From the NCBI RefSeq assembly GCF_056746865.1, contig NZ_CM163382.1: 64,000 nucleotides of DNA. The stretch is one strand, 5' to 3'. The notes beneath the pieces are model-generated. The model saw only the letters and a program-made list of their open reading frames with translations, ran no database searches and was not told where the DNA came from. How positions within the stretch are numbered: the stretch's first letter is position 1; each line of letters starts with the position of its first letter. The translations under genes were made by a program, and so were the position numbers. Positions 4,494 through 14,647 of the stretch are shown one piece after another.

Positions 4494-6065
4494 ATGACAT
4501 CTCCATCTTCGACAGCCGGAAAGCCCTGTGTGGAATGCGGCATTCCTGATCCATGTATTTTTGATGTTATTAGTGATTTTCCAGAGGCCGGCGAGAAACA
4601 TTTCTGGTCAAAAGAAGGAGTGGCGCGTTTTAAGCTACTGGATGATGGTTCCGGATGTGATGGTATAATTACCATTACCTACCAGTGCGATAAAAGTGGA
4701 ACACATGAGGCATGGTTAGAGGAAGAATCAGAAAATAATCATAAGATACTGCAACCTTTCGGAATACCTAATAAGGTCACTTTGGATGATAACTTGTCTG
4801 AAGGTGAAATAATTGCTATGGGTACATTTCGAGTACCATGGGATTATTTGGGGGCAATATCCTCTCCACTTAAGAATCATTATGAACCTGCCCATTATTC
4901 AGTCAGAATTGACAGTTGTTACGAATGTGGCAATTATGTTGAAATTGATGTTTATCCTACAGTGGAAATTAGGTTTACTACAGGGTTCAGCTATGAGATT
5001 TCGTCATCAAAACAGACGAGAACAGTAAAAGAGCGGCGTGACGAAAGAATAAAAGCCAGGGACGCAATGGAGAACACCAAGCCCAGGGATAAAAATAAAC
5101 TCCGTAGCGGCTGGACAAATACCACTGCTGAGTTTGAGTGGATAAACAAGACTTCCCTGACTGTCGATTTTGGCGTAAAAATAGCTAATGTTGAACACAC
5201 AAGTGAATATGAAAAAGAGATAAAAAAACTTCGACAAACAAAGCAACTGGAACAGATAGGAAGAATTGACTCTCTGGTCAAGAATGTCAATAAATATTTT
5301 GCGCCAGATCCTGACAATAATAATGGTACGCGCAAATATGCATTGTTCAGTGCAAAAATAGAACCCGTTAAACTGGGTATATCGTATGCCTATCAATATA
5401 CCGATATCCAGGATGGCCCCTGTCATTTTTATGGTTTGTTTGGTGCCCCATTTTTTGAAGCGTCGTTCAGATTCGATATTATTTCATTTATATGTGCATA
5501 TTGTAAAGTCGAGTCATTGGTCAACAGATGTCGTGAATATCTCCGTAAAAACGGAGCCAGTGTTGAATGCTATATCGAGATTTCAGCGGAGATTAATCTT
5601 GATCTTGGCGCAGTATACGCTGAAAAGGATAAAAAATGGGAGTTTAATGTAAAGGAAAGTAACATCAAGCTCGGTTTAAAAGGTGTGGTGAGTGCGACGT
5701 TTGAGGCGAATGTTTTTGTTGTACAACTGACCGCCGAAGCGACTGCCTCTATAGAAGCGAAAGCTGGATTTGGATTTGATTCACATGATGACGGACTGGA
5801 CCTAGCATTATTTCATGACGGCATTAAAGGGAAGTTTGAATTTAAGATTGATGTGTCTCATGGTGAAGTTGATGAAAAAGGAAAGGGGAAGGAAAAGAGC
5901 GAAAAACCTGAGAAGAAAGATACCGTTGAGTGGCAGTTATGTGATCCTATGGAGGTAAAGGATTCACCATTACGGGTTAATTTATACGGTAAAGAACGCA
6001 CTGTGGAGAAAAAAGTAACACCGCCGAAGCCAGTGACAACGTGGACGATAGGTATGGATTATTAA
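4494..6065 (+). CDS. Candidate T6SS cargo effector, activity unknown
   Basis: 523-aa AT-rich ORF immediately after the DUF4123 adaptor. I recognise no catalytic motif; Lys/Glu-rich C-terminus. Confidence 0.45.
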   Translation: MTSPSSTAGKPCVECGIPDPCIFDVISDFPEAGEKHFWSKEGVARFKLLDDGSGCDGIITITYQCDKSGTHEAWLEEESENNHKILQPFGIPNKVTLDDNLSEGEIIAMGTFRVPWDYLGAISSPLKNHYEPAHYSVRIDSCYECGNYVEIDVYPTVEIRFTTGFSYEISSSKQTRTVKERRDERIKARDAMENTKPRDKNKLRSGWTNTTAEFEWINKTSLTVDFGVKIANVEHTSEYEKEIKKLRQTKQLEQIGRIDSLVKNVNKYFAPDPDNNNGTRKYALFSAKIEPVKLGISYAYQYTDIQDGPCHFYGLFGAPFFEASFRFDIISFICAYCKVESLVNRCREYLRKNGASVECYIEISAEINLDLGAVYAEKDKKWEFNVKESNIKLGLKGVVSATFEANVFVVQLTAEATASIEAKAGFGFDSHDDGLDLALFHDGIKGKFEFKIDVSHGEVDEKGKGKEKSEKPEKKDTVEWQLCDPMEVKDSPLRVNLYGKERTVEKKVTPPKPVTTWTIGMDY

Positions 6066-6131
6066 GTGATATTACAGAAATTAAAAGTGAACAGTATAAT
6101 GAGTATTTTCCCCTTTTGAGAGAGAATAATT

Positions 6132-7142
6132 ATGAAGGCAAAACATTTAATATCGGTTATTTTACTGTCAGGAGTTGTTATGGGAACTGGATTTTGCTCT
6201 AACGATAACCAGCAAAAAATTCGCAGTAAGTTTAATATTGAAGAGTCATATTGTGCCATTAAGACTAATGGCGTCCTCGGGTTCAGTAACCGAAGAAGTG
6301 CCTGGCGGGCAAATGGTGATTCAACCGGGGCCATATCCAGCACCAATGCCATGATGCTGATGGCGAATGGAGAAAATGAAATCAGTCTGGAGATTGGGGC
6401 ATTAGGATGGTTTTCTGACAAGCCTGCCAGTATGGAAGAACGGGGGCGTTTTTTTCCAAAAGCAGGATGCAGCCTGGATTTGGTTCGTTTTATTAAACAG
6501 GAGGAAACGCTGCTTTCTTCAATAAAAGTGACCATCAACCAGCAGGGCATACCTGAAGCCCGGCCAGACAGCGTGCATCCCGTTATCCGGAAAGAGATTT
6601 TGGCTGAGCAGGCGGAGCCAGGATTTATTGATCCAGATTATTTTGATGAAACCTATTTCCCGAAAGGGATGAAGGTGTATCAGTTCACTCAAAAAGTTAC
6701 CGTGACAGGGCTTCCTGAATGGGCCTGGACGCGGGCAACCCCCTATACCGGAAGCGACGAGCAGTTACGGAAGTTAAAAGCCGCCTATACCGAAATGGCA
6801 AGCATCATCAGTAGCCGGGACAGGGCACGTCTGAAAGCTTATAACAAAGAGGCGCTGAAGGCATGGTCAGCCACAACCGGTGACTCTGAGGATGACATAT
6901 TACTCTCACTCTTCTCAAAAGATAATGTGGAGGGAGGGAAAGCCAGAATGCAGCCCATCAGGTGGGACGATTATGCCGTCCGGGTTATGAATGGTGGACG
7001 TATGGTGCAGCTATATAATAAATCGAAACCAATATATTCCCCACTGACTTACCGTTTTACAGATGAAAGTGGTGAAGAGCGTATGGGGTATTACGCTCCG
7101 GTATTTTCGCTGATTGATGGTCAGTTTATCCCTGTTACTTGA
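6132..7142 (+). CDS. Candidate cognate immunity protein, secreted or lipoprotein
   Basis: 336-aa ORF with N-terminal signal peptide MKAKHLISVILLSGVVMGTGFC (lipobox-like Cys); position directly after the candidate effector. Confidence 0.4.
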   Translation: MKAKHLISVILLSGVVMGTGFCSNDNQQKIRSKFNIEESYCAIKTNGVLGFSNRRSAWRANGDSTGAISSTNAMMLMANGENEISLEIGALGWFSDKPASMEERGRFFPKAGCSLDLVRFIKQEETLLSSIKVTINQQGIPEARPDSVHPVIRKEILAEQAEPGFIDPDYFDETYFPKGMKVYQFTQKVTVTGLPEWAWTRATPYTGSDEQLRKLKAAYTEMASIISSRDRARLKAYNKEALKAWSATTGDSEDDILLSLFSKDNVEGGKARMQPIRWDDYAVRVMNGGRMVQLYNKSKPIYSPLTYRFTDESGEERMGYYAPVFSLIDGQFIPVT

Positions 7143-7172
7143 TTAACCTGTTGGGCTACAAATCAGGATGTC

Positions 7173-7216
7173 CGGTAAGGTGATTATTACTGAGTTAAGC
7201 ACCTTACCGTTTTTTA
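7173..7216 (+). terminator. Rho-independent terminator closing the hcp–vgrG–effector unit
   Basis: Stem cggtaaggtg / caccttaccg followed by TTTTTT. Confidence 0.5.
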
Positions 7217-8379
7217 AATTTTTTGTCGCTGATATTCCAGACAGGAAAACAATATGCCTTTAGCTGCCAGATTAAACGACAAAGGTACCGGCACAGGGAA
7301 AGATCACGTAACGCTGCTTTTTTGTACTAAATAATTCGCATTTTATGTTTAAAATTTGAGATATTCCTCATTACCTGAGGCTGTTTTTTATTACTTATAC
7401 ATGATCAAATACTCCTTACATAATTAAGGGGAACAAAATGGAACTTAAAAATTGATGGAACATATTTCTGTTATTCCCGATTACAGACAAGCCTGGAAAG
7501 TGGAACATAAATTGTCGGATATTCTACTGTTGACTATTTGTGCCGTTATTTCGGGTGCAGAAGGTTGGGAAGATATAGAGGATTTTGGGGAAACACATCT
7601 CGATTTTTTAAAACAATACGGTGATTTTGAAAATGGTATTCCTGTTCACGATACCATCGCCAGAGTTGTATCCTGTATCAGTCCTGCAAAATTTCACGAG
7701 TGCTTTATTAACTGGATGCGAGATTGCCATACTTCAGATGATAAAGACGTCATCGCAATTGATGGAAAAACGCTCCGGCACTCTTATGACAAGAGTCGCC
7801 GCAGGGGAGCGATTCATGTCATTAGTGCGTTCTCAACAATGCACAGCCTGGTCATCGGACAGATCAAGACGGATGAGAAAACCAATGAGATTACAGCTAT
7901 CCCAGAACTTCTTAACATGCTGGATATTAAAGGAAAAATCATCACAACTGATGCGATGGGTTGCCAGAAAGATATTGCAGAGAAGATACAAAAACAGGGC
8001 GGTGATTATTTATTCGCTGTAAAAGGAAATCAGGGGCGGCTTAATAAAGCCTTTGAGGAAAAATTCCCACTGAAAGAATTAAATAATCCAGAGCATGACA
8101 GTTACGCAATGAGTGAAAAGAGTCACGGCAGAGAAGAAATCCGTCTTCATATTGTTTGCGATGTCCCTGATGAACTTATTGATTTCACGTTTGAATGGAA
8201 AGGACTGAAGAAATTATGCGTGGCAGTCTCCTTTCGGTCCATAATAGCAGAACAAAAGAAAGAGCCAGAAATGACGGTCAGATATTATATCAGTTCTGCT
8301 GATTTAACCGCAGAGAAGTTCGCCACAGCAATCCGAAACCACTGGCACGTGGAGAATAAGCTGCACTGGCGTCTGGACG

Positions 8380-10270
8380 GTGTGCCGCAGGAACACAAGA
8401 TAGCTGCATAAGGATACGCAGTTAGCTTTTGTATAAGCTCATAAAGAGATGGTGGAAGGCCCACCGGGATCGGCTGTCGGAAGCAGATTCCAAACCACTT
8501 CATGCTGCTGTGGTAAAGAGCCATGGTAGTGAGCGATGAAGTAAAGCGTGAGTGAAAACTCAGCAGGTAAGATACTCATGAGACGAGTGAACCCGAACCC
8601 ATGTTGACGCGTCGTAAACCAGAGACTGACATCAAAACCGAAGGGGCGTCCAGCCTTCGGGATAAGTCTGCGAGTGAATTCCGAATGCTGCGCAGACGGT
8701 GTCCGGCGTAAAGTGGGCGTGACGGAGTATCAGGCTCTTCCTGGGAACTGCGGGAACCTGTCGTTGTGATGATAAGGGAGAAATGCAAGTCACTGAATTG
8801 GCGAGCATGAAAGTACCGATGCACAGCACAGGGACGGAGCCGTTCGTAGTAGTGATGAAGCTTCTGTAATGGAGGTGGAGCGAAGGGGCGGCATCAGACA
8901 GTCTTTGGACAGTGTTCAACTGAACATGTTCAGGAGGAGACAATGACAAAGACAAAAGCGTTTAACATTGATAAGTCACTGGTGGTCAGCGCGTACAGGC
9001 GAGTGAAGACCAGTGCAGGCGCGGCGGGAATTGATAAGCAATCGCTGGCGGACTTTGATAAACGGTTAGTTGATAATCTGTACAAAATCTGGAACCGACT
9101 TTCTTCAGGAAGTTATTTCCCACCGGCAGTGAAAGCGGTGGCAATTCCGAAGAAATTGGGTGGAGAGAGAATTCTGGGTATCCCGACAGTCAGCGATCGT
9201 ATCGCGCAGACGGTGGTAAAACTGGCCTTTGAGCCACAGGTTGAGCCACATTTTCTGGCAGACTCTTACGGCTACAGACCGAATAAATCGGCACTGGATG
9301 CTATAGGGGTAACGCGTAAGCGTTGCTGGTATTACGACTGGGTACTGGAATTTGACATCAAAGGGCTGTTCGATAACATCCCGCACGAACTGATAATGAA
9401 AGCCGTGGACAAACACAATCCGGCCCGGTGGGTAAAATTGTATATACAGCGGTGGCTGACAGCGCCGATGGTGATGTCAGACGGAGAAGTCAGAGCACGA
9501 ACAATGGGAACGCCGCAGGGAGGTGTCATAAGTCCGTTGCTGGCAAACCTGTTCATGCATTATGTGTTTGATAAATGGCTGGCAAAATATTATCCGAAAG
9601 TGCCGTGGTATCGATATGCTGATGATGGCATTTTGCATTGTCACAGCGAAGCAGAAGCGACTGAAATGCGAGAAGTATTACGCAAAAGATTTAGCGAATG
9701 CGGACTGGAAATGCATCCGGAGAAAACGCGAGTTATCTACTGCAAAGATGGAAGCCGGAAGGGTGATTATGAACATACCATGTTCGACTTTCTGGGGTAC
9801 ACATTCAGGCGACGCGTAGTAAAGAACGTTAAGCGAAACAGTCTGTTTGTAAGTTTTACCCCCGCAGCGAGCAAATCAGCGCTAAAGGCAATGCGTCGGG
9901 AAATCAAAGCGACAGGGATAAGGAAAAGAGTGGATTTAAGCATTGAGCAGATAGCGAAATGGATAAATCCAAAACTGAATGGCTGGATAAATTATTACGG
10001 GCGATATACCTGTTCGGAATTATACAGCGTGTTCAGATATATCAATAAAGCACTGGTGAGGTGGGGGCGTAAGAAATATAAAATGCTCAGCCGATACAAG
10101 ACAAGAGCCTCAAAATTTCTGGAAGAAATGGCGAAGCGAAGTCCACAGTTGTTTGCCCACTGGCGTCTGAAGATGAGAGGCGGACTTGTTTGATGGGAGC
10201 GGTATGAGCCGAGAGGTTCACGTACCGTTCTGCGAGAGGCTGCGGGGGAGGTTCCTGCGGCCTACTCACC
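8380..10270 (+). mobile_element. Group II intron (bacterial, with RT/maturase ORF)
   Basis: Boundaries from aligning interrupted copy 1 to uninterrupted copy 2: shared …cgtctggacg | intron starts GTGTGCCG … ends …cctactcacc | tggtaatgaatg resumes. Domain V-like GAGCCG…CGTACCGTTC lies just after the RT stop. Confidence 0.7.
8943..10193 (+). CDS. Group II intron-encoded reverse transcriptase/maturase
   Basis: 416-aa ORF with RT motifs (…RYADDG… YADD box) and a maturase X-domain motif (NGWINYYG). Confidence 0.85.
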
Positions 10271-10493
10271 TGGTAATGAATGAAGACGACTGCAAAATAA
10301 GAAGAGGAAATGCAGCAGAATTATTTTCAGGGATACGGCACATCGCTATTAATATTTTGACGAATGATAAGGTATTCAAGGCAGGGTTAAGACGTAAGAT
10401 GCGAAAAGCAGCCATGGACAGAAACTATCTGGCGTCAGTCCTTGCGGGGTGCGGGCTTTCGTAATCTTTCCCTGGATGTGAAAAGCAGCTGCG

Positions 10494-11779
10494 GACAGGG
10501 AAAGATCATCAGAAGTACACTTTTTGTACTAAACAATTCGCATTTTATGTTTAAAAATTGAGATATTCCTCATTACCTGAAGCTGTTTTTTATTGCTTAT
10601 ACATGATCAAATACTCCTTACATAATTAAGGAGAACAAAATGGAACTTAAAAAATTGATGGAGCATATTTCTATTATCCCCGATTACAGACAAGCCTGGA
10701 AAGTGGAACATAAATTATCGGATATTCTACTGTTGACTATTTGTGCCGTTATTTCTGGTGCAGAAGGTTGGGAAGATATAGAGGATTTTGGGGAAACACA
10801 TCTCGATTTTTTGAAGCAATATGGTGATTTTGATAATGGTATTCCTGTTCACGATACCATTGCCAGAGTTGTATCCTGTATCAGTCCTGCAAAATTTCAC
10901 GAGTGCTTTATTAACTGGATGCGTGACTGCCATTCTTCAGATGATAAAGACGTCATTGCAATTGATGGAAAAACGCTCCGACACTCTTATGACAAGAGTC
11001 GCCGCAGGGGAGCGATTCATGTCATTAGTGCGTTCTCAACAATGCACAGCCTGGTCATCGGACAGATCAGGACGGATGAGAAATCTAATGAGATTACAGC
11101 TATCCCTGAACTTATTAACATGCTGGATATTAAAGGAAAAATCATCACAACTGATGCGATGGGTTGCCAGAAAGATATTGCAGAGAAGATACAAAAACAG
11201 GGAGGTGATTATTTATTCGCTGTAAAAGGAAACCAGGGGCGGCTAAATAAAGCCTTCGAGGAAAAATTTCTGCTGAAAGAATTAAATAATCCAGAGCATG
11301 ACAGTTACGCAATTAGTGAAAAGAGTCACGGCAGAGAAGAAATCCGTCTTCACATTGTTTGCGATGTCCCTGATGAACTTATTGATTTCACGTTTGAATG
11401 GAAAGGTCTGAAGAAATTATGCGTGGCAGTCTCCTTTCGGTCAATAATAGCAGAACAAAAGAAAGAGCCCGAAATGACGGTCAGATATTATATCAGTTCT
11501 GCTGATTTAACCGCAGAGAAGTTCGCCACAGCAATCCGAAACCACTGGCACGTGGAGAATAAGCTGCACTGGCGTCTGGACGTGGTAATGAATGAAGACG
11601 ACTGCAAAATAAGAAGAGGAAACGCAGCAGAATTATTTTCAGGGATACGGCACATTGCTATTAATATTTTGACGAATGATAAGGTATTCAAGGCAGGGTT
11701 AAGACGTAAGATGCGAAAAGCAGCCATGGACAGAAACTACCTGGCGTCAGTCCTTGCGGGGAGCGGGCTTTCGTAATCT
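10494..11779 (+). mobile_element. H-repeat (ISAs1-family) element copy 2, intact
   Basis: Left IR acagggaaagatca and right IR tcttgccctg; direct orientation, about 20 bp after copy 1. Confidence 0.75.
10640..11776 (+). CDS. H-repeat-associated ISAs1-family transposase
   Basis: 378-aa [35 protein letters not shown]… uninterrupted. Confidence 0.85.
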
Positions 11780-11895
11780 TGCCCTGGTACAGTAAACAAA
11801 CGAAAGTTGTTATTTCAATGGTCAGGGCAAGAGCATGAAGTGTTTACTACACACTATGCTCTTGTCCTGGAGTCAGGTCTTGTTTGGAGGGATAA

Positions 11896-12399
11896 ATGGT
11901 AGATATTGTCGAGGCCGATAAAACGGATATTTATTTCATTCAGGAGAGTGTTTATGGCAAAATCGGGTTGCCAGCTTTTGGTAATACAATAGGACCATCC
12001 GCACAGCAAGTTGTTAAAAAGGTATTCGCTGTCGTTAAAGAACGAGATAAGACACATGCAAAACAGAGATTATTGTTGGAATATAATGGTAACAAACTCT
12101 GGATGAATGCTATTGATGGCAGTGAAGCTATCCTACCAACAGAATTTTCTAAGCGATACGAACTTTCATTATTTAATACTACTAATTTTGGAGAAGATCC
12201 TTTTCCTGATGTTAATTTATATAATAATATGAAATCAAGTTTTTTTGTAAGGTTTGGTGGAACATCCCATCCCGAGGCTTGGGCTATTTATAATGCAAGT
12301 ACGAAAGAGGTTAAATATATAGAAACTGCAAGAGAAATTGATAAAATATTCAGTGATTTTAACTTGAGTGGTACATTGCCAATTCACATTGGTCGATGA
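11896..12399 (+). CDS. Hypothetical protein, AT-rich cargo
   Basis: 167-aa ORF in a low-GC segment between H-repeat elements; no recognisable motif. Confidence 0.35.
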   Translation: MVDIVEADKTDIYFIQESVYGKIGLPAFGNTIGPSAQQVVKKVFAVVKERDKTHAKQRLLLEYNGNKLWMNAIDGSEAILPTEFSKRYELSLFNTTNFGEDPFPDVNLYNNMKSSFFVRFGGTSHPEAWAIYNASTKEVKYIETAREIDKIFSDFNLSGTLPIHIGR

Positions 12400-12465
12400 T
12401 TTTTTAAATTGTGTGATTAAATAATTGAACATTAATGATGATTTATAGCATTATTATTCTATAAC

Positions 12466-12978
12466 ATGAATAAACGGATTGAATGTGTTATGTTAAAAAT
12501 AAGTTTATACGTAATAATATTGTTATTTTCCTTTCAGATTAGTGCAGCCATTACTAGCAAGGAAAGTGAGGTTGTTTCACCATTATTAATGGATGTTAAT
12601 TCTTCACTAACAATGGAAAATATTTCTGAATTATCCACATCATCGGAACCATCGCAACAGGGGGTATTTCCTGTAATATGTACTCGACTTCATCCTGGCT
12701 CCGTAATGAAACGCCAGTTATTAACCGGCTGGGGGCCTGTTTTTATAATTGGTGATGATCCTTTTTCTCTGCGCTGGATGAGTGAACATCTGGAGATCCT
12801 TAAATCGCTAAATGCCCTTGGTTTGGTTGTTAATGTTGAATCAGTAGAACGAATGGAGGTATTACAGCAGCGGGCTGATGGGTTATTGTTATTGCCAGTT
12901 ATCTGCGATAATTTCGTGCAAACTCTGCAATTAAATGCTTATCCGGTATTAATCACAGAGATGGAAATATCACAATGA
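12466..12978 (+). CDS. Hypothetical secreted/membrane protein
   Basis: 170-aa ORF with a hydrophobic N-terminal segment (ISLYVIILLFSFQISAAITS); low GC. Confidence 0.35.
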   Translation: MNKRIECVMLKISLYVIILLFSFQISAAITSKESEVVSPLLMDVNSSLTMENISELSTSSEPSQQGVFPVICTRLHPGSVMKRQLLTGWGPVFIIGDDPFSLRWMSEHLEILKSLNALGLVVNVESVERMEVLQQRADGLLLLPVICDNFVQTLQLNAYPVLITEMEISQ

Positions 12979-12994
12979 TTAATAACATAATTAC

Positions 12995-13215
12995 TGCAAA
13001 TAATATCGTAATTTTGAAAATGGTAATTCTGTTCACGGCACCATAATTAGAGTTATGTCTTGTATCCGTTCAGTATAATTTCACGAATGCTTTATTAACT
13101 GGATGCGAGATTGCCATTCATCAAATGATAAAGACGTCATCGCAATTGATGGAAAAGCGCTTCCACACTCCTATGATAAAAGTGGTCGCAGGGGAGCGGG
13201 CTTTCGTAGTCTTAG
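12995..13215 (+). pseudogene. Internally deleted H-repeat transposase remnant (position equivalent to K-12 yafF)
   Basis: Matches the ENGIPVH…[10 protein letters not shown]…SRRRGA segment, then jumps to the element 3' end (…ggagcgggctttcgtagtct…); junction at a short ggggagcg microhomology. Confidence 0.6.
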
Positions 13216-13249
13216 CCCGACTCTCCCCGGCCCTAAACACAACACCCAC

Positions 13250-14020
13250 TCACCACAACCTAAACTCATCCGCATCCCGCCATGCCGGAAACTTTTCTCT
13301 ATATTCCCGCAATGCCGCCATCGACAGCTCCGCATCAATGCGCGTTGCCTGATGCGCGTCGGCGGTGGCGATAATCTCGCCCTGTGGATTAATCACCCGG
13401 CTGTCACCGCGATAATGGCAGCCGTTGCCATCGCTGCCGACGCGATTGCATCCCGCCACATACGCTTGATTCTCAATCGCGCGGGCCGTCAGCAATGCCT
13501 GCCAGTGCAGAGAGCGCGGAGCCGGCCAGTTGGCGACGTACAGGGCGAGGTCGTAATCGTTGAGATTGCGCGACCACACAGGAAAACGTAAGTCGTAGCA
13601 CACCAGCGGCAAAATACGCCAGCCGCGCCATTCCACAATCACTCGCGCATTGCCCGCTTTATAATGCAGATGCTCATCTGCCATGCGGAACAGATGACGC
13701 TTATCATAAAAATGTACCGTGCCGCCTGGCTCAACCAGCAAAAAGCGGTTAACCGAACCAGACTCCGTTTGTAATGCAACACTGCCTGCAATCAGCGCAT
13801 TGCACTGCTGCGCTTTGGCTGTCATCCAGTTCACTACGTCATCTTGTGCTAGCGACGAAGCTGCCGCTTCCATGGCAAAGCCGCTGGTAAACATCTCCGG
13901 TAGAACGATCACATCGCGTCCGGTAATATCTTCCAGTTGACGATCAAAATGACGCAGGTTGGCAGGACCATCCATCCACACCAGTGGTTGCTGCAAAAGC
14001 GTAATCTTCAAACCAGGCAC
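13250..14020 (-). CDS. yafV: Carbon–nitrogen hydrolase family protein (omega-amidase) YafV
   Basis: ORF 13250..14029; probable GTG start giving [22 protein letters not shown]…, 256 aa, as in K-12 YafV. Confidence 0.85.
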
Positions 14021-14173
14021 GGTGTACAACTCCTTTATGCGAAGGGTTTTATAACTTTAACACCTTATCAGGCAGTTGCCTTAGCGCAGAATAAATTGAT
14101 AACAAATGCTGATATTGGAAATATCTGATTTGCAAATTATCGTGTTATCGCCAGGCTTTAGGAGGTTAATAAC

Positions 14174-14647
14174 ATGGGCAGGATAAGCTCGGGAGGAATG
14201 ATGTTTAAGGCAATAACGACAGTCGCCGCTCTGGTCATCGCCACCAGTGCAATGGCGCAGGATGATTTAACCATTAGCAGCCTTGCAAAGGGCGAAACCA
14301 CCAAAGCTGCGTTTAATCAGATGGTGCAAGGGCATAAGCTGCCTGCATGGGTGATGAAAGGCGGTACTTATACTCCCGCACAAACCGTAACGTTGGGAGA
14401 TGAGACGTATCAGGTGATGAGCGCGTGCAAACCGCATGACTGTGGCTCGCAACGTATCGCTGTGATGTGGTCCGAGAAATCTAATCAGATGACGGGGCTG
14501 TTCTCGACTATTGATGAGAAAACGTCGCAAGAGAAACTCACCTGGTTGAATGTGAACGATGCGCTTTCGATTGATGGTAAAACGGTGCTGTTCGCGGCGT
14601 TGACCGGCAGCCTGGAAAACCATCCGGATGGTTTTAATTTTAAATAA
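14174..14647 (+). CDS. ivy: Inhibitor of vertebrate lysozyme Ivy
   Basis: 157-aa ORF with signal peptide and the CKPHDCG motif. Confidence 0.9.
   Translation: MGRISSGGMMFKAITTVAALVIATSAMAQDDLTISSLAKGETTKAAFNQMVQGHKLPAWVMKGGTYTPAQTVTLGDETYQVMSACKPHDCGSQRIAVMWSEKSNQMTGLFSTIDEKTSQEKLTWLNVNDALSIDGKTVLFAALTGSLENHPDGFNFK

Follow-up and report, generated by a model that had tools for sequence, protein, structure and literature searches.

A probable ISAs1-family insertion-sequence graveyard at the distal end of an Escherichia coli type VI secretion island

Introduction

Why do several differently decayed pieces of related insertion sequences (IS) lie side by side where an Escherichia coli type VI secretion island meets the core genome, and have exchanges between them shaped that boundary? 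We analysed a window of 64,000 nucleotides (RefSeq assembly GCF_056746865.1, contig NZ_CM163382.1), in which the original prediction had placed a cluster of H-repeats at the junction of island and core and suggested repeated H-repeat-mediated recombination. Published work describes the aspV type VI secretion island in strains LF82 and 042 (PMC2941450, PMC2808357). With a probability of roughly 80%, we regard the cluster as a graveyard of ISAs1-family IS at the distal end of this island, without a function of its own.

Setting and composition of the cluster

The entire stretch is identical across about 169 annotated genomes, and the PGAP annotation of an identical genome lists, on the upstream side of the cluster, tssE, tssC, tssB, hcp, a truncated vgrG and a DUF4123-effector cassette and, on the downstream side, yafV-ivy-fadE, with yafV in the same position as in K-12. 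The gene order on both sides therefore bears out the proposed island/core junction. All IS pieces lie in direct orientation (Table 1), and pairwise alignment and family searches recovered the three differently decayed H-repeat copies that had been announced. The features originally described are confirmed to be present in the sequence, and a chance origin is ruled out for each of them. Every component of the cluster is of an already known kind, and the region, where the island ends, is an ordinary pile-up of known IS copies.

Table 1 Features of the cluster and its flank (positions in the window).
Feature	Position	Strand	Basis or remark
H-repeat copy 1, ISEc1-like, ISAs1 family	7294..10474	+	1,290 nt without the intron; alignments, PGAP
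Copy 1 terminal repeats	7294-7311 (left); 10457-10474 (right)		inverted pair
A5 run in copy 1	7447..7451	+	A6 in copy 2; alignment column 163
Group II intron, 1,891 nt, starting GTGTG	8380..10270	+	Rfam and exon alignment
ltrA, intron-encoded reverse transcriptase/maturase, 416 aa	8943..10193	+	PF00078, PF08388, TIGR04416; named ltrA by PGAP
24-nt relic of an older H-repeat, GATGTGAAAAGCAGCTGCGGACAG	10475..10498	+	between copies 1 and 2
H-repeat copy 2, canonical ISEc1, 1,291 bp	10496..11786	+	alignment, PGAP
Copy 2 transposase ORF, 378 aa, intact	10640-11776	+	PF13808, PF01609, NF033564
47-bp palindrome, two outward-facing ISEc26-type terminal repeats 13 nt apart	11823..11869	.	inverted pair
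167-aa ORF	11896..12399	+	ORF list, conservation
Isolated DUF2859/PFL_4695-family 'integrating conjugative element protein' gene	12466..12978	+	PF11072, TIGR03765; PGAP start 12490
H-repeat copy 3 remnant	12998..13219	+	alignment; PGAP ISAs1 pseudogene fragment with internal stop
yafV (2-oxoglutaramate amidase)	13250..14020	-	PF00795, PGAP; first core gene right of the island

Copy 2 closes a vgrG/effector array at its distal end, as H-repeats do in Rhs elements; unlike the Rhs loci, the window has a tandem, directly oriented series of three copies plus a 24-nt relic, and an intron interrupts one of the copies. Elsewhere, H-repeats are found at effector-cassette boundaries in LF82, in Escherichia whittamii and in the yncG-yddH island of Nissle. 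The DUF2859 gene between the palindrome and copy 3 lies in a stretch of low local G+C (composition profile).

Copies 1 and 2

Copy 2 is intact, as had been claimed. Its length and ends equal those of the ISEc1 copies of K-12 yhhI and strain 55989, its DNA is 97.8% identical to the yhhI copy, and PGAP annotates here an intact 'ISAs1-like element ISEc1 family transposase'. With the ISEc1/H-repeat elements of Rhs loci (for example yhhI, ybfD, ydcC and the yafF pseudogene in K-12) it shares the 1,291-bp length, the CAGGG...CCCTG ends and a DDE transposase. Of the copies, copy 2 alone could still yield a full-length transposase.

Copy 1 is 96-97% identical to copy 2 across about 1.29 kb (pairwise alignment), and PGAP splits it into two ISAs1 pseudogene pieces. 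The loss of one A and the presence of an intron, both foreseen for this copy, were upheld by the alignment and by Rfam matches. As a result of the 1-nt loss, the frame from the ATG at 7438 ends at a TGA at 7453-7455; this stop overlaps an in-frame ATG at 7455 (Met7), which is also the start of the PGAP pseudogene. A full-length transposase could come from copy 1 only by a restart at Met7 combined with splicing of the intron. Copy 1 is itself a mosaic: its leftmost 25-38 nt are of an older type (O), as found in S88, LF82 and E. whittamii, with 11 consecutive old-type sites followed by mostly ISEc1-type sites.

A fourth H-repeat relic, additional to the three copies first recognised, lies between copies 1 and 2. 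It matches the 3' interior of the O-type H-repeat of S88 at 24 of 24 positions, its final 3 nt also belong to the left terminal repeat of copy 2, and over the stretch compared the interior in E. whittamii is of the same O type.

A palindrome built of two IS ends

The short inverted pair downstream of copy 2 had been thought to resemble two solo terminal repeats. It is indeed a pair of IS ends, although most probably from ISEc26, another ISAs1-family element, and not from the H-repeat (ISEc1): arm 1 matches the ISEc26 right end at 17 of 17 positions and the left end at 16 of 17, and arm 2 matches an ISEc26 terminus at 13 of 14; the chance expectation for an exact 17-mer in the window is about 7e-6. 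The arms thus equal the 17-nt terminal repeats of ISEc26, which is known as the yncI pseudogene of K-12 and as an intact element beside yafV in O157:H7, with a decayed form beside yafV in B1 strains; here just 47 bp are left, without the transposase gene and at a position that differs from that of every full ISEc26 observed.

Alternatively, the palindrome could lack an IS origin and act in regulation, as an operator or terminator of either the 167-aa ORF or the transposase gene upstream. Its two 21-nt arms form a strong hairpin (DNA folding energy -16.3 kcal/mol, z-score -5.5), it ends 26 nt upstream of the 167-aa ORF, no target-site duplication is visible and it has no other copies, being found once per genome, with a conservation of 95% or more, across 546 E. 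coli genomes. A search of about 100,000 species representatives found it in just one species besides E. coli, namely E. whittamii, where it occupies the orthologous locus. The 167-aa ORF is conserved together with it (541-758 E. coli genomes and E. whittamii), and searches of Pfam, NCBIfam, PADLOC and PDB sequences gave no match for it. We nevertheless consider a purely regulatory origin improbable, as both arms match ISEc26 termini with their CAGGG ends facing outward as in a real IS, and neither a T-run terminator signature nor a sigma-70-like promoter match was found at the palindrome; the two readings are also compatible, as former IS ends could later have taken on a regulatory role.

With its outward-facing terminal repeats from a known IS, which enclose very little interior sequence, the palindrome also recalls MITEs and solo-repeat derivatives of IS. 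It differs from these in being single-copy, and its assignment as a dispersed MITE was rejected, there being one copy per genome and no evidence that it has ever moved.

The remnant beside yafV

The third copy had been described as an internal fragment fused to the 3' end of the element through a microhomology, ending at about 13215; this holds in all but the end, which lies at 13219. The segment is related to the H-repeat: positions 12998-13198 correspond to IS positions of about 319-519, with 84% identity to copy 1 (7611-7811) and about 83% to copy 2 (10814-11014), and the best match of this internal fragment elsewhere in E. coli has E = 7e-46. The deletion junction is the 8-nt GGGGAGCG at 13191-13198; it is followed at 13199-13219 by the final 21 nt of the element in degenerate form. 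The remnant lies 30 nt from yafV, and its right junction is identical to that of K-12 yafF, confirming its placement where K-12 carries yafF; K-12 yafF retains the 3' 280 bp, whereas the window remnant retains the internal fragment. A remnant of this type with the same junction occurs in 966 E. coli genomes. In E. whittamii, the remnant and its junction fall inside a 4.6-kb collinear alignment of 91.9% identity, which extends across yafV and ivy, and the remnant is therefore ancient.

The remnant may not be the product of a deletion within a single copy; it could be the junction of two H-repeats, a divergent upstream one and a yafV-side one, joined at a G(G/A)GAGCG microhomology. The identity of the internal fragment to ISEc1 reaches only about 83%, the full-length or partial copies that end in this stub in B1 and K-12 strains are 96-99% ISEc1-type, and the B1 copy bears the GGAGAGCG variant seen at most remnant junctions. 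However, the remnant form is already present in E. whittamii, which makes later replacement the simpler explanation of the ISEc1-type bodies, and a strain with both parental copies intact was not found. We regard the two-copy origin as doubtful, though worth keeping in mind beside the deletion within one copy.

Recombination at the island/core junction

Variable gene clusters can be recombined at their ends through IS copies, as in the H-repeat-mediated rfb recombination of Salmonella group D2. The comparison with K-12 and other strains revealed the same yafV-side junction in K-12 and recombinant remnants elsewhere, and the crossover mosaics, the shared stub and the mosaic copy 1 together lend support to the earlier suggestion that repeated H-repeat-mediated recombination shaped this end of the island. 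An ISEc1-type 3' body sits on the same yafV-side stub in 2,521 genomes. K-12 yafF, L37 and the full-length copy of O104:H4 and CPww7 are 96-99% ISEc1-type (K-12 yafF is 98.9% identical to copy 2, against about 83% for copy 3) and end in the degenerate terminus and flank of copy 3, the terminus cgtaGtctta(g/c)cccg plus flank being common to the window-, K-12- and B1-type arrangements. In Z226-6 and S1-INA-02-B, the remnants are ISEc1-type up to IS position ~445-456 and copy-3-type beyond; this switch of type in mid-fragment points to a crossover inside the fragment.

An insertion hot spot beside yafV, with independent ISAs1-family insertions followed by random decay and no recombination between copies, would account for the occurrence of two family members by lineage (ISEc1-type in K-12 and B1, intact ISEc26 in O157), for the O157 ISEc26 end lying a few nt from the ISEc1 stub, and for the ISEc1 left end standing at nearly the same relative position in two older elements (the window and an RhsE-type tandem). 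The shared junctions and the mosaics go most of the way to refuting this reading, and we hold it to be highly unlikely: the right junction falls on the same nucleotide in window-, K-12- and B1-type arrangements although the bodies differ by up to 17%, the remnants change type in mid-fragment and copy 1 is a mosaic too. The comparisons thus support the view that recombination between copies has probably rebuilt the junction repeatedly; they also support short-homology or IS-adjacent deletions, as distinct from classical homologous recombination, for some of the events.

The direct repeats would act as portable homology. A crossover that pairs an upstream ISEc1-type copy with the remnant, or with the 21-23-nt terminal stub of the remnant, would delete the intervening DNA, and such events would generate the K-12 yafF, L37 and B1/O104:H4 arrangements; a crossover within the internal fragment would generate the Z226-6 and S1-INA-02-B mosaics, and short-homology and IS-adjacent deletions the remaining junctions. 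As 18-23 nt of homology is marginal for RecA-dependent exchange, the stub events may represent RecA-independent slippage. That the copies have acted is plain from the strains compared; how they acted we infer. Direct IS copies as portable homology, with deletion or swapping of the DNA between them, are shared with the group D2 rfb case, whereas the outcome here is decay and resizing of a type VI island/core junction, seen through comparative evidence only.

A layered history

Alignment with the sister species E. whittamii shows that the oldest layer is common to both. This layer comprises an old H-repeat, the ISEc26-type repeat pair, the 167-aa ORF, the lone DUF2859 gene and the remnant H-repeat abutting yafV, which would already have lost 751 bp between two GGGGAGCG octamers (GGAGAGCG in most strains). 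In the later layer, specific to the lineage of the window, a modern ISEc1 (copy 2) occupies the place of the 3' region of the old element, of which 24 nt are left, with its last 54 nt and about 50 nt of flank missing. Copy 1, mostly ISEc1-type with an old-type left end, would then have lost one A and received the group II intron. The anatomy of this later layer is evident in the alignments, and we infer the order of events for copy 1, the relic and copy 2, for which no intermediate strain was found in the strain comparison. H-repeat transposition is reported not to have been observed (PMC3032704), and the insertion steps therefore assume a putative activity. The polarity, with the window type ancestral and the K-12 type derived, is suggested by one outgroup genome, and interspecies transfer is possible.

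The intron in copy 1

The intron interrupts the transposase gene between ...CTGGACG and TGGTAATG..., with Rfam matches to RF01999 (8451-8568, 105.5 bits) and to RF00029, domains V/VI (10195-10270, 58.3 bits). When it is removed, the flanking exons of copy 1 rejoin to exactly the sequence of copy 2, which carries the identical homing site, empty, 3.2 kb away. The ltrA product has reverse transcriptase and maturase domains (TIGR04416, 412 bits against a cutoff of 300), and a profile search detected no endonuclease domain in its 416 residues. The intron is of an already known self-splicing type; E.c.I2 and E.c.I9 are reported to target the Rhs IS (ISEc1-5) (PMC3522654). Like these, it is a bacterial group II intron with a reverse transcriptase-maturase ORF in an ISEc1 transposase gene, and it occurs once per genome, leaving free homing sites unoccupied; its inferred 3' end reads ...CACC, in contrast to the usual ...AY.

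Organisation of the island end

Known ISAs1-family elements, all pointing the same way, are stacked in this region at the edge of an island. Three H-repeat copies had been predicted here, and their number and direct orientation were confirmed by reading positions 6800-14200, with a repeat finder and by pairwise alignments. In one of the genomes identical over 6900-14100, the PGAP annotation places tssE, tssC, tssB, hcp, a 3'-truncated vgrG, a DUF4123 protein and two hypotheticals upstream, followed by H-repeat pieces, ltrA, an intact ISEc1 transposase, a hypothetical, an 'integrating conjugative element protein', an ISAs1 fragment, yafV, ivy and fadE. The tss genes on one side and yafV-ivy-fadE on the other show that the cluster lies at the distal end of the aspV island for type VI secretion, whose aspV end is outside the window. 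The same tss to yafV-ivy-fadE layout is found in S88 and LF82 and, together with the PGAP annotation, bears out the prediction that the cluster marks the junction of the type VI secretion island with the core genome. This island has been described for LF82, 042 and others (PMC2941450, PMC2808357), and a yhhI transposase inside it was already noted in the paper on LF82 PAI I (PMC2941450). There is no new kind of element or mechanism here; public genome annotations already include the arrangement, and yafF has an existing annotation as a pseudogene and matches ISAs1-family (H-repeat) sequence.

Features of the H-repeat cluster in the window, and ISEc1-type bodies on the yafV-proximal stub in other strains
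Feature	Position or strain	Length, strand or sequence	Remark
Copy 1	7294-10474
Copy 1 left terminal repeat	7294-7311	CAGGGAAAGATCACGTAA	Inverted partner at 10457-10474
Group II intron	8380-10270	1,891 nt, plus strand	Splits transposase gene between ...CTGGACG (8379) and TGGTAATG... (10271)
Fourth H-repeat relic	10475-10498	GATGTGAAAAGCAGCTGCGGACAG	Between copies 1 and 2, 21-24 nt
Copy 2	10496-11786	1,291 bp	Length and termini exactly as in K-12 yhhI and the 55989 ISEc1 copies
Palindrome	11823-11869	47 bp
ORF of 167 aa	11896-12399
DUF2859/PFL_4695 gene	12466-12978
Copy 3 (remnant)	12998-13219
Copy 3 internal fragment	12998-13198		Counterpart of copy 2 10814-11014, IS positions ~319-519; ~83-84% identity to copies 1 and 2 over 201 nt
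Copy 3 octamer	13191-13198	GGGGAGCG	Followed by GGCTTTCGTAGTCTTAGCCCG, a degenerate form of the terminal 21 nt of the element
yafV	13250-14020	Minus strand
ISEc1-type body on stub	K-12	280 bp
ISEc1-type body on stub	Strain L37	972 bp	Interrupted by IS1
ISEc1-type body on stub	O104:H4 and CPww7	Full length	After vgrG, Rhs core, ydcD and a decayed ISEc26

The junction with yafV

Copy 3 matches ybfD-type copies with an E value of 7e-46 and is annotated by PGAP as an ISAs1 pseudogene. Its homology to copies 1 and 2 agrees with the proposal that it is an internal fragment fused to the 3' end of the element across the octamer GGGGAGCG. As this octamer occurs twice in copy 2, at 11007-11014 and 11758-11765, the remnant corresponds to an element without the 751 bp between the two 8-nt repeats. 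The IS-derived sequence stops at 13219, 30 nt from the stop codon of yafV (13250). In K-12 the order is yafU, yafF, yafV, and yafF consists of the 3' 280 bp of an H-repeat with 98.9% identity to copy 2. The terminus of yafF, ...GGGGAGCGGGCTTTCGTAGTAATACCCCG, is followed by the flank ACTCTCCCCG... as in copy 3, and therefore the right junction falls at the same nucleotide in both strains, which places the remnant at the site of K-12 yafF, as predicted. The bodies at this shared junction differ, being ISEc1-type in K-12 and an internal fragment of the 83% type in the window.

Over positions 6900-14100 the window shares 100% identity with its best-matching complete genomes; at least 80% of this stretch lies in one place in 169 genomes. 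The window-type remnant is more widely distributed, being found at a coverage of at least 80% in 966 genomes, which include the B2 strains S88 and LF82 as well as strains whose upstream island is unrelated, D10 being an example. In most remnant-bearing genomes the junction octamer reads GGAGAGCG. The E. whittamii locus is collinear with the window, with the remnant, its junction, the DUF2859 gene, the 167-aa ORF, the palindrome and an older H-repeat upstream; the 4.6-kb alignment has 91.9% identity and continues through yafV and ivy. Barring interspecies transfer, this layer hence predates the divergence of the two species. An ISEc1-type body is joined to the same stub in 2,521 genomes, and its length varies among strains (see table). 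In the remnants of Z226-6 and S1-INA-02-B the sequence is ISEc1-type up to IS position ~445-456 and of the copy 3 type thereafter, the mark of a crossover inside the fragment. In the O157:H7 stretch (L016) the ISEc1 stub is absent, and an intact ISEc26 of 1,305 bp lies a few nucleotides away. At the island end of B1 and O104:H4 strains (stretch L014, 4801-7292), vgrG, Rhs, ydcD and a decayed ISEc26 precede a full-length ISEc1 fused to the yafV stub, a gene order that is the same as the RhsE distal structure of K-12.

Taken together, these classes show, by sequence comparison, one ancient insertion, whose terminal stub has persisted and onto which different bodies have been recombined. The shared right junction, the swapped bodies and the mosaic remnants support the original prediction of repeated H-repeat-mediated recombination at the island end, which is likely to have reshaped the island/core junction more than once. 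Some of the junctions are short-homology deletions, across 8 nt at GGGGAGCG and 18-23 nt at the stub, and other junctions may be IS-adjacent deletions. A deletion between copy 2 and the remnant would produce a K-12-type junction within GGGGAGCGGGCTTTCGTA. The importance of these results is mostly one of bookkeeping: they account for the origin of the K-12 pseudogene yafF, they identify the last ~20 nt of the ancient H-repeat as a fixed landmark in at least ~3,500 of the 5,426 complete E. coli genomes, and they supply precise breakpoints for aligning aspV type VI secretion islands. The region is also a clean natural example of IS copies serving as portable homology at an island edge.

Copies 1 and 2 and the piece between them

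Elements of the ISAs1 family are ~1.2-1.5 kb long and have terminal inverted repeats beginning CAGGG, and both copy 1 and copy 2 have a length and terminal repeats of this kind. Copy 2 was correctly described as intact, as it retains its full 1,291 bp and a 378-aa ORF, in which the DDE_Tnp_1_assoc and DDE_Tnp_1 domains of a DDE transposase were detected (PF13808 at 9.5e-34, PF01609 at 9.2e-30). This ORF scores 413.8 bits against the ISAs1 equivalog NF033564 (cutoff 70) and is labelled by PGAP as an intact 'ISAs1-like element ISEc1 family transposase'. No target-site duplication was found flanking copy 1, copy 2 or three reference copies; according to PMC3032704, H-rpt transposition has not been observed.

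The terminal repeats of copy 1 were recovered by the repeat finder as 18 nt with 89% complementarity, and the copy without its intron measures 1,290 nt and shares 96% identity with copy 2 in pairwise alignment. The predicted loss of one A is evident from the alignment, in which the run at 7447-7451 is A5 in copy 1 and A6 in copy 2. As a consequence, the ATG at 7438 reads only five codons before the TGA at 7453-7455. This TGA overlaps the in-frame codon for Met7 of the transposase (ATG at 7455), at which the PGAP pseudogene starts. At 7438-7457 the short upstream frame left by the 1-nt loss thus closes in TGATG. Given splicing of the intron, a restart at Met7 could still yield a copy 1 transposase lacking six residues. 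The left end of copy 1 (7294-7331; alignment positions 14-38) carries 11 consecutive old-type bases at the sites that separate copy 2 from the E. whittamii element, and this old-type end is common to S88, LF82 and E. whittamii. Beyond alignment position 38, copy 1 is mostly ISEc1-type. The old-type left end, followed by a mostly ISEc1-type remainder, indicates that copy 1, too, is a mosaic produced by recombination or gene conversion.

The spacer that separates copies 1 and 2 agrees at 24/24 positions with the 3' interior of the older H-repeat in S88, as compared with 20/24 for the window's own H-repeat copies, and E. whittamii has the same O-type interior. The spacer is in effect a fourth H-repeat piece, derived from the older element. 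To the right of copy 2, the older element lacks its last 54 nt, and ~50 nt of the flank are gone as well. Whether ISEc1 inserts site-specifically into older ISAs1 elements was also considered, as the breaks in two nested cases fall at almost identical relative positions. This explanation is unproven, and it is opposed by the second nested case being the RhsE tandem, which is present in K-12 too, and by three other ISEc1 copies with unrelated flanks. The order of the events that gave copy 1, the relic and copy 2 is one that we infer.

The group II intron in copy 1

The presence of an intron in copy 1 was substantiated by two Rfam models, both matched over the full model length, and by its coding capacity. 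Group-II-D1D4-2 (RF01999) matches 8451-8568 with 105.5 bits (gathering score 36), and Intron_gpII (RF00029), which covers domains V/VI, matches 10195-10270 with 58.3 bits (gathering score 40). Domain IV encodes a 416-aa RT/maturase with PF00078 and PF08388, which scores 412 bits against TIGR04416 (cutoff 300). Group II introns have the consensus boundaries 5' GUGYG and 3' AY. The 5' end of this intron is GTGTG at 8380; rejoining of the exons to the copy 2 sequence requires a 3' end at 10270, ...CACC, and not ...AY. With an AY-type end (AC at 10269), the spliced mRNA would retain one C too many and be shifted in frame. This 3' boundary is a minor unexplained point.

Full-length copies of the intron with at least 99% identity were found in 172 genomes, approximately the number that hold the whole arrangement (169), with a median of one place per genome. 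The RT/maturase ORF of the intron is nevertheless intact. In copy 2, 3.2 kb away, the exon junction is identical and free of an intron (11560-11600 compared with 8350-8379 and 10271-10310), so that the region is also a clear case, in nature, of a group II intron whose identical homing site lies free 3.2 kb away. According to Leclercq and Cordaux, the Rhs IS (ISEc1-5) is the target of E.c.I2 and E.c.I9, which are present at only 14-20% of the sites open to them (PMC3522654). The intron described here shows the same behaviour, having an ISEc1 target and leaving a free site, and it is likened to E.c.I2 and E.c.I9 by behaviour rather than by sequence. A literature search joining H-rpt with group II introns returned no match.

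The palindrome between copy 2 and the low G+C segment

The palindrome folds as DNA with -16.3 kcal/mol (z-score -5.5). Its first arm matches the right terminal repeat of ISEc26 at 17/17 positions and the left at 16/17, and its second arm matches an ISEc26 end at 13 of the first 14 nt; the chance expectation of an exact 17-mer in the window is ~7e-6. The CAGGG ends point outward, as in a complete IS. From these matches and this orientation, the palindrome is read as two ISEc26-type ends that enclose 13 nt. The original prediction of a mini inverted-repeat pair resembling two solo terminal repeats therefore stands as regards a pair of IS ends, and is revised as regards the parent, which is ISEc26: the arms agree with ISEc1 ends at only 13-15 of 21 positions. 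In O157:H7 the ISEc26 left end (L016, 1222-1270) itself forms a strong hairpin of ~48 nt from the terminal CAGG, similar to the palindrome in size and layout. The palindrome may thus be a solo ISEc26 left end or a left-plus-right pair.

A dispersed or mobile MITE was rejected, since each of 546 E. coli genomes has the palindrome at a single place, and among 100,044 species genomes the exact pattern was found solely at the orthologous E. whittamii locus. The flanks, ...CAATGGT and GGAGTCA..., contain no direct repeat that would be a target-site duplication. A terminator or promoter was likewise discarded, as the site has no T-run and no sigma-70-like match.

Genes and effector cassettes around the cluster

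The segment 11896-12978 is low in G+C, comprises the 167-aa ORF and a lone DUF2859 gene, and is conserved at this position across hundreds of E. coli genomes as well as in E. whittamii. The DUF2859 gene matches TIGR03765; as for its being part of an integrating conjugative element, it stands alone between IS remnants with no ICE genes nearby. The 167-aa ORF gave nothing useful against PDB sequences or in tblastn against plasmids, and neither it nor the 523-aa and 336-aa ORFs matched Pfam, NCBIfam or PADLOC.

The latter two ORFs belong to the left flank of the cluster, where 4494-7142 (upstream to ~1675) holds the 3'-truncated vgrG, a DUF4123 adaptor gene and then the 523-aa and 336-aa ORFs, presumably an effector-immunity pair. 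A paralogous cassette with 88.8% identity, of the DUF4123-effector type and also ending in an ISAs1 fragment, is present in the yncG-yddH vgrG island of E. coli Nissle. It is the only related sequence without an H-repeat, and as a paralogue it was rejected as a true empty site for copy 1. In LF82 and E. whittamii, further H-repeats lie at boundaries between effector cassettes. We consider it improbable that H-repeats are the standard right-hand 'punctuation' of vgrG/Rhs effector cassettes, with their recombination, perhaps transposase-aided, as the usual means of exchanging or losing type VI effector-immunity modules in E. coli and its relatives, and that the palindrome has been kept since before the split of E. 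coli and E. whittamii for an acquired function, e.g. control of the 167-aa ORF or transposase binding. In an identical genome (stretch L001, 22964-24833), ~9 kb to the right of yafV, rayT, which encodes a REP-associated tyrosine transposase, lies beside ISEc31 and the lateral flagellar flhA.
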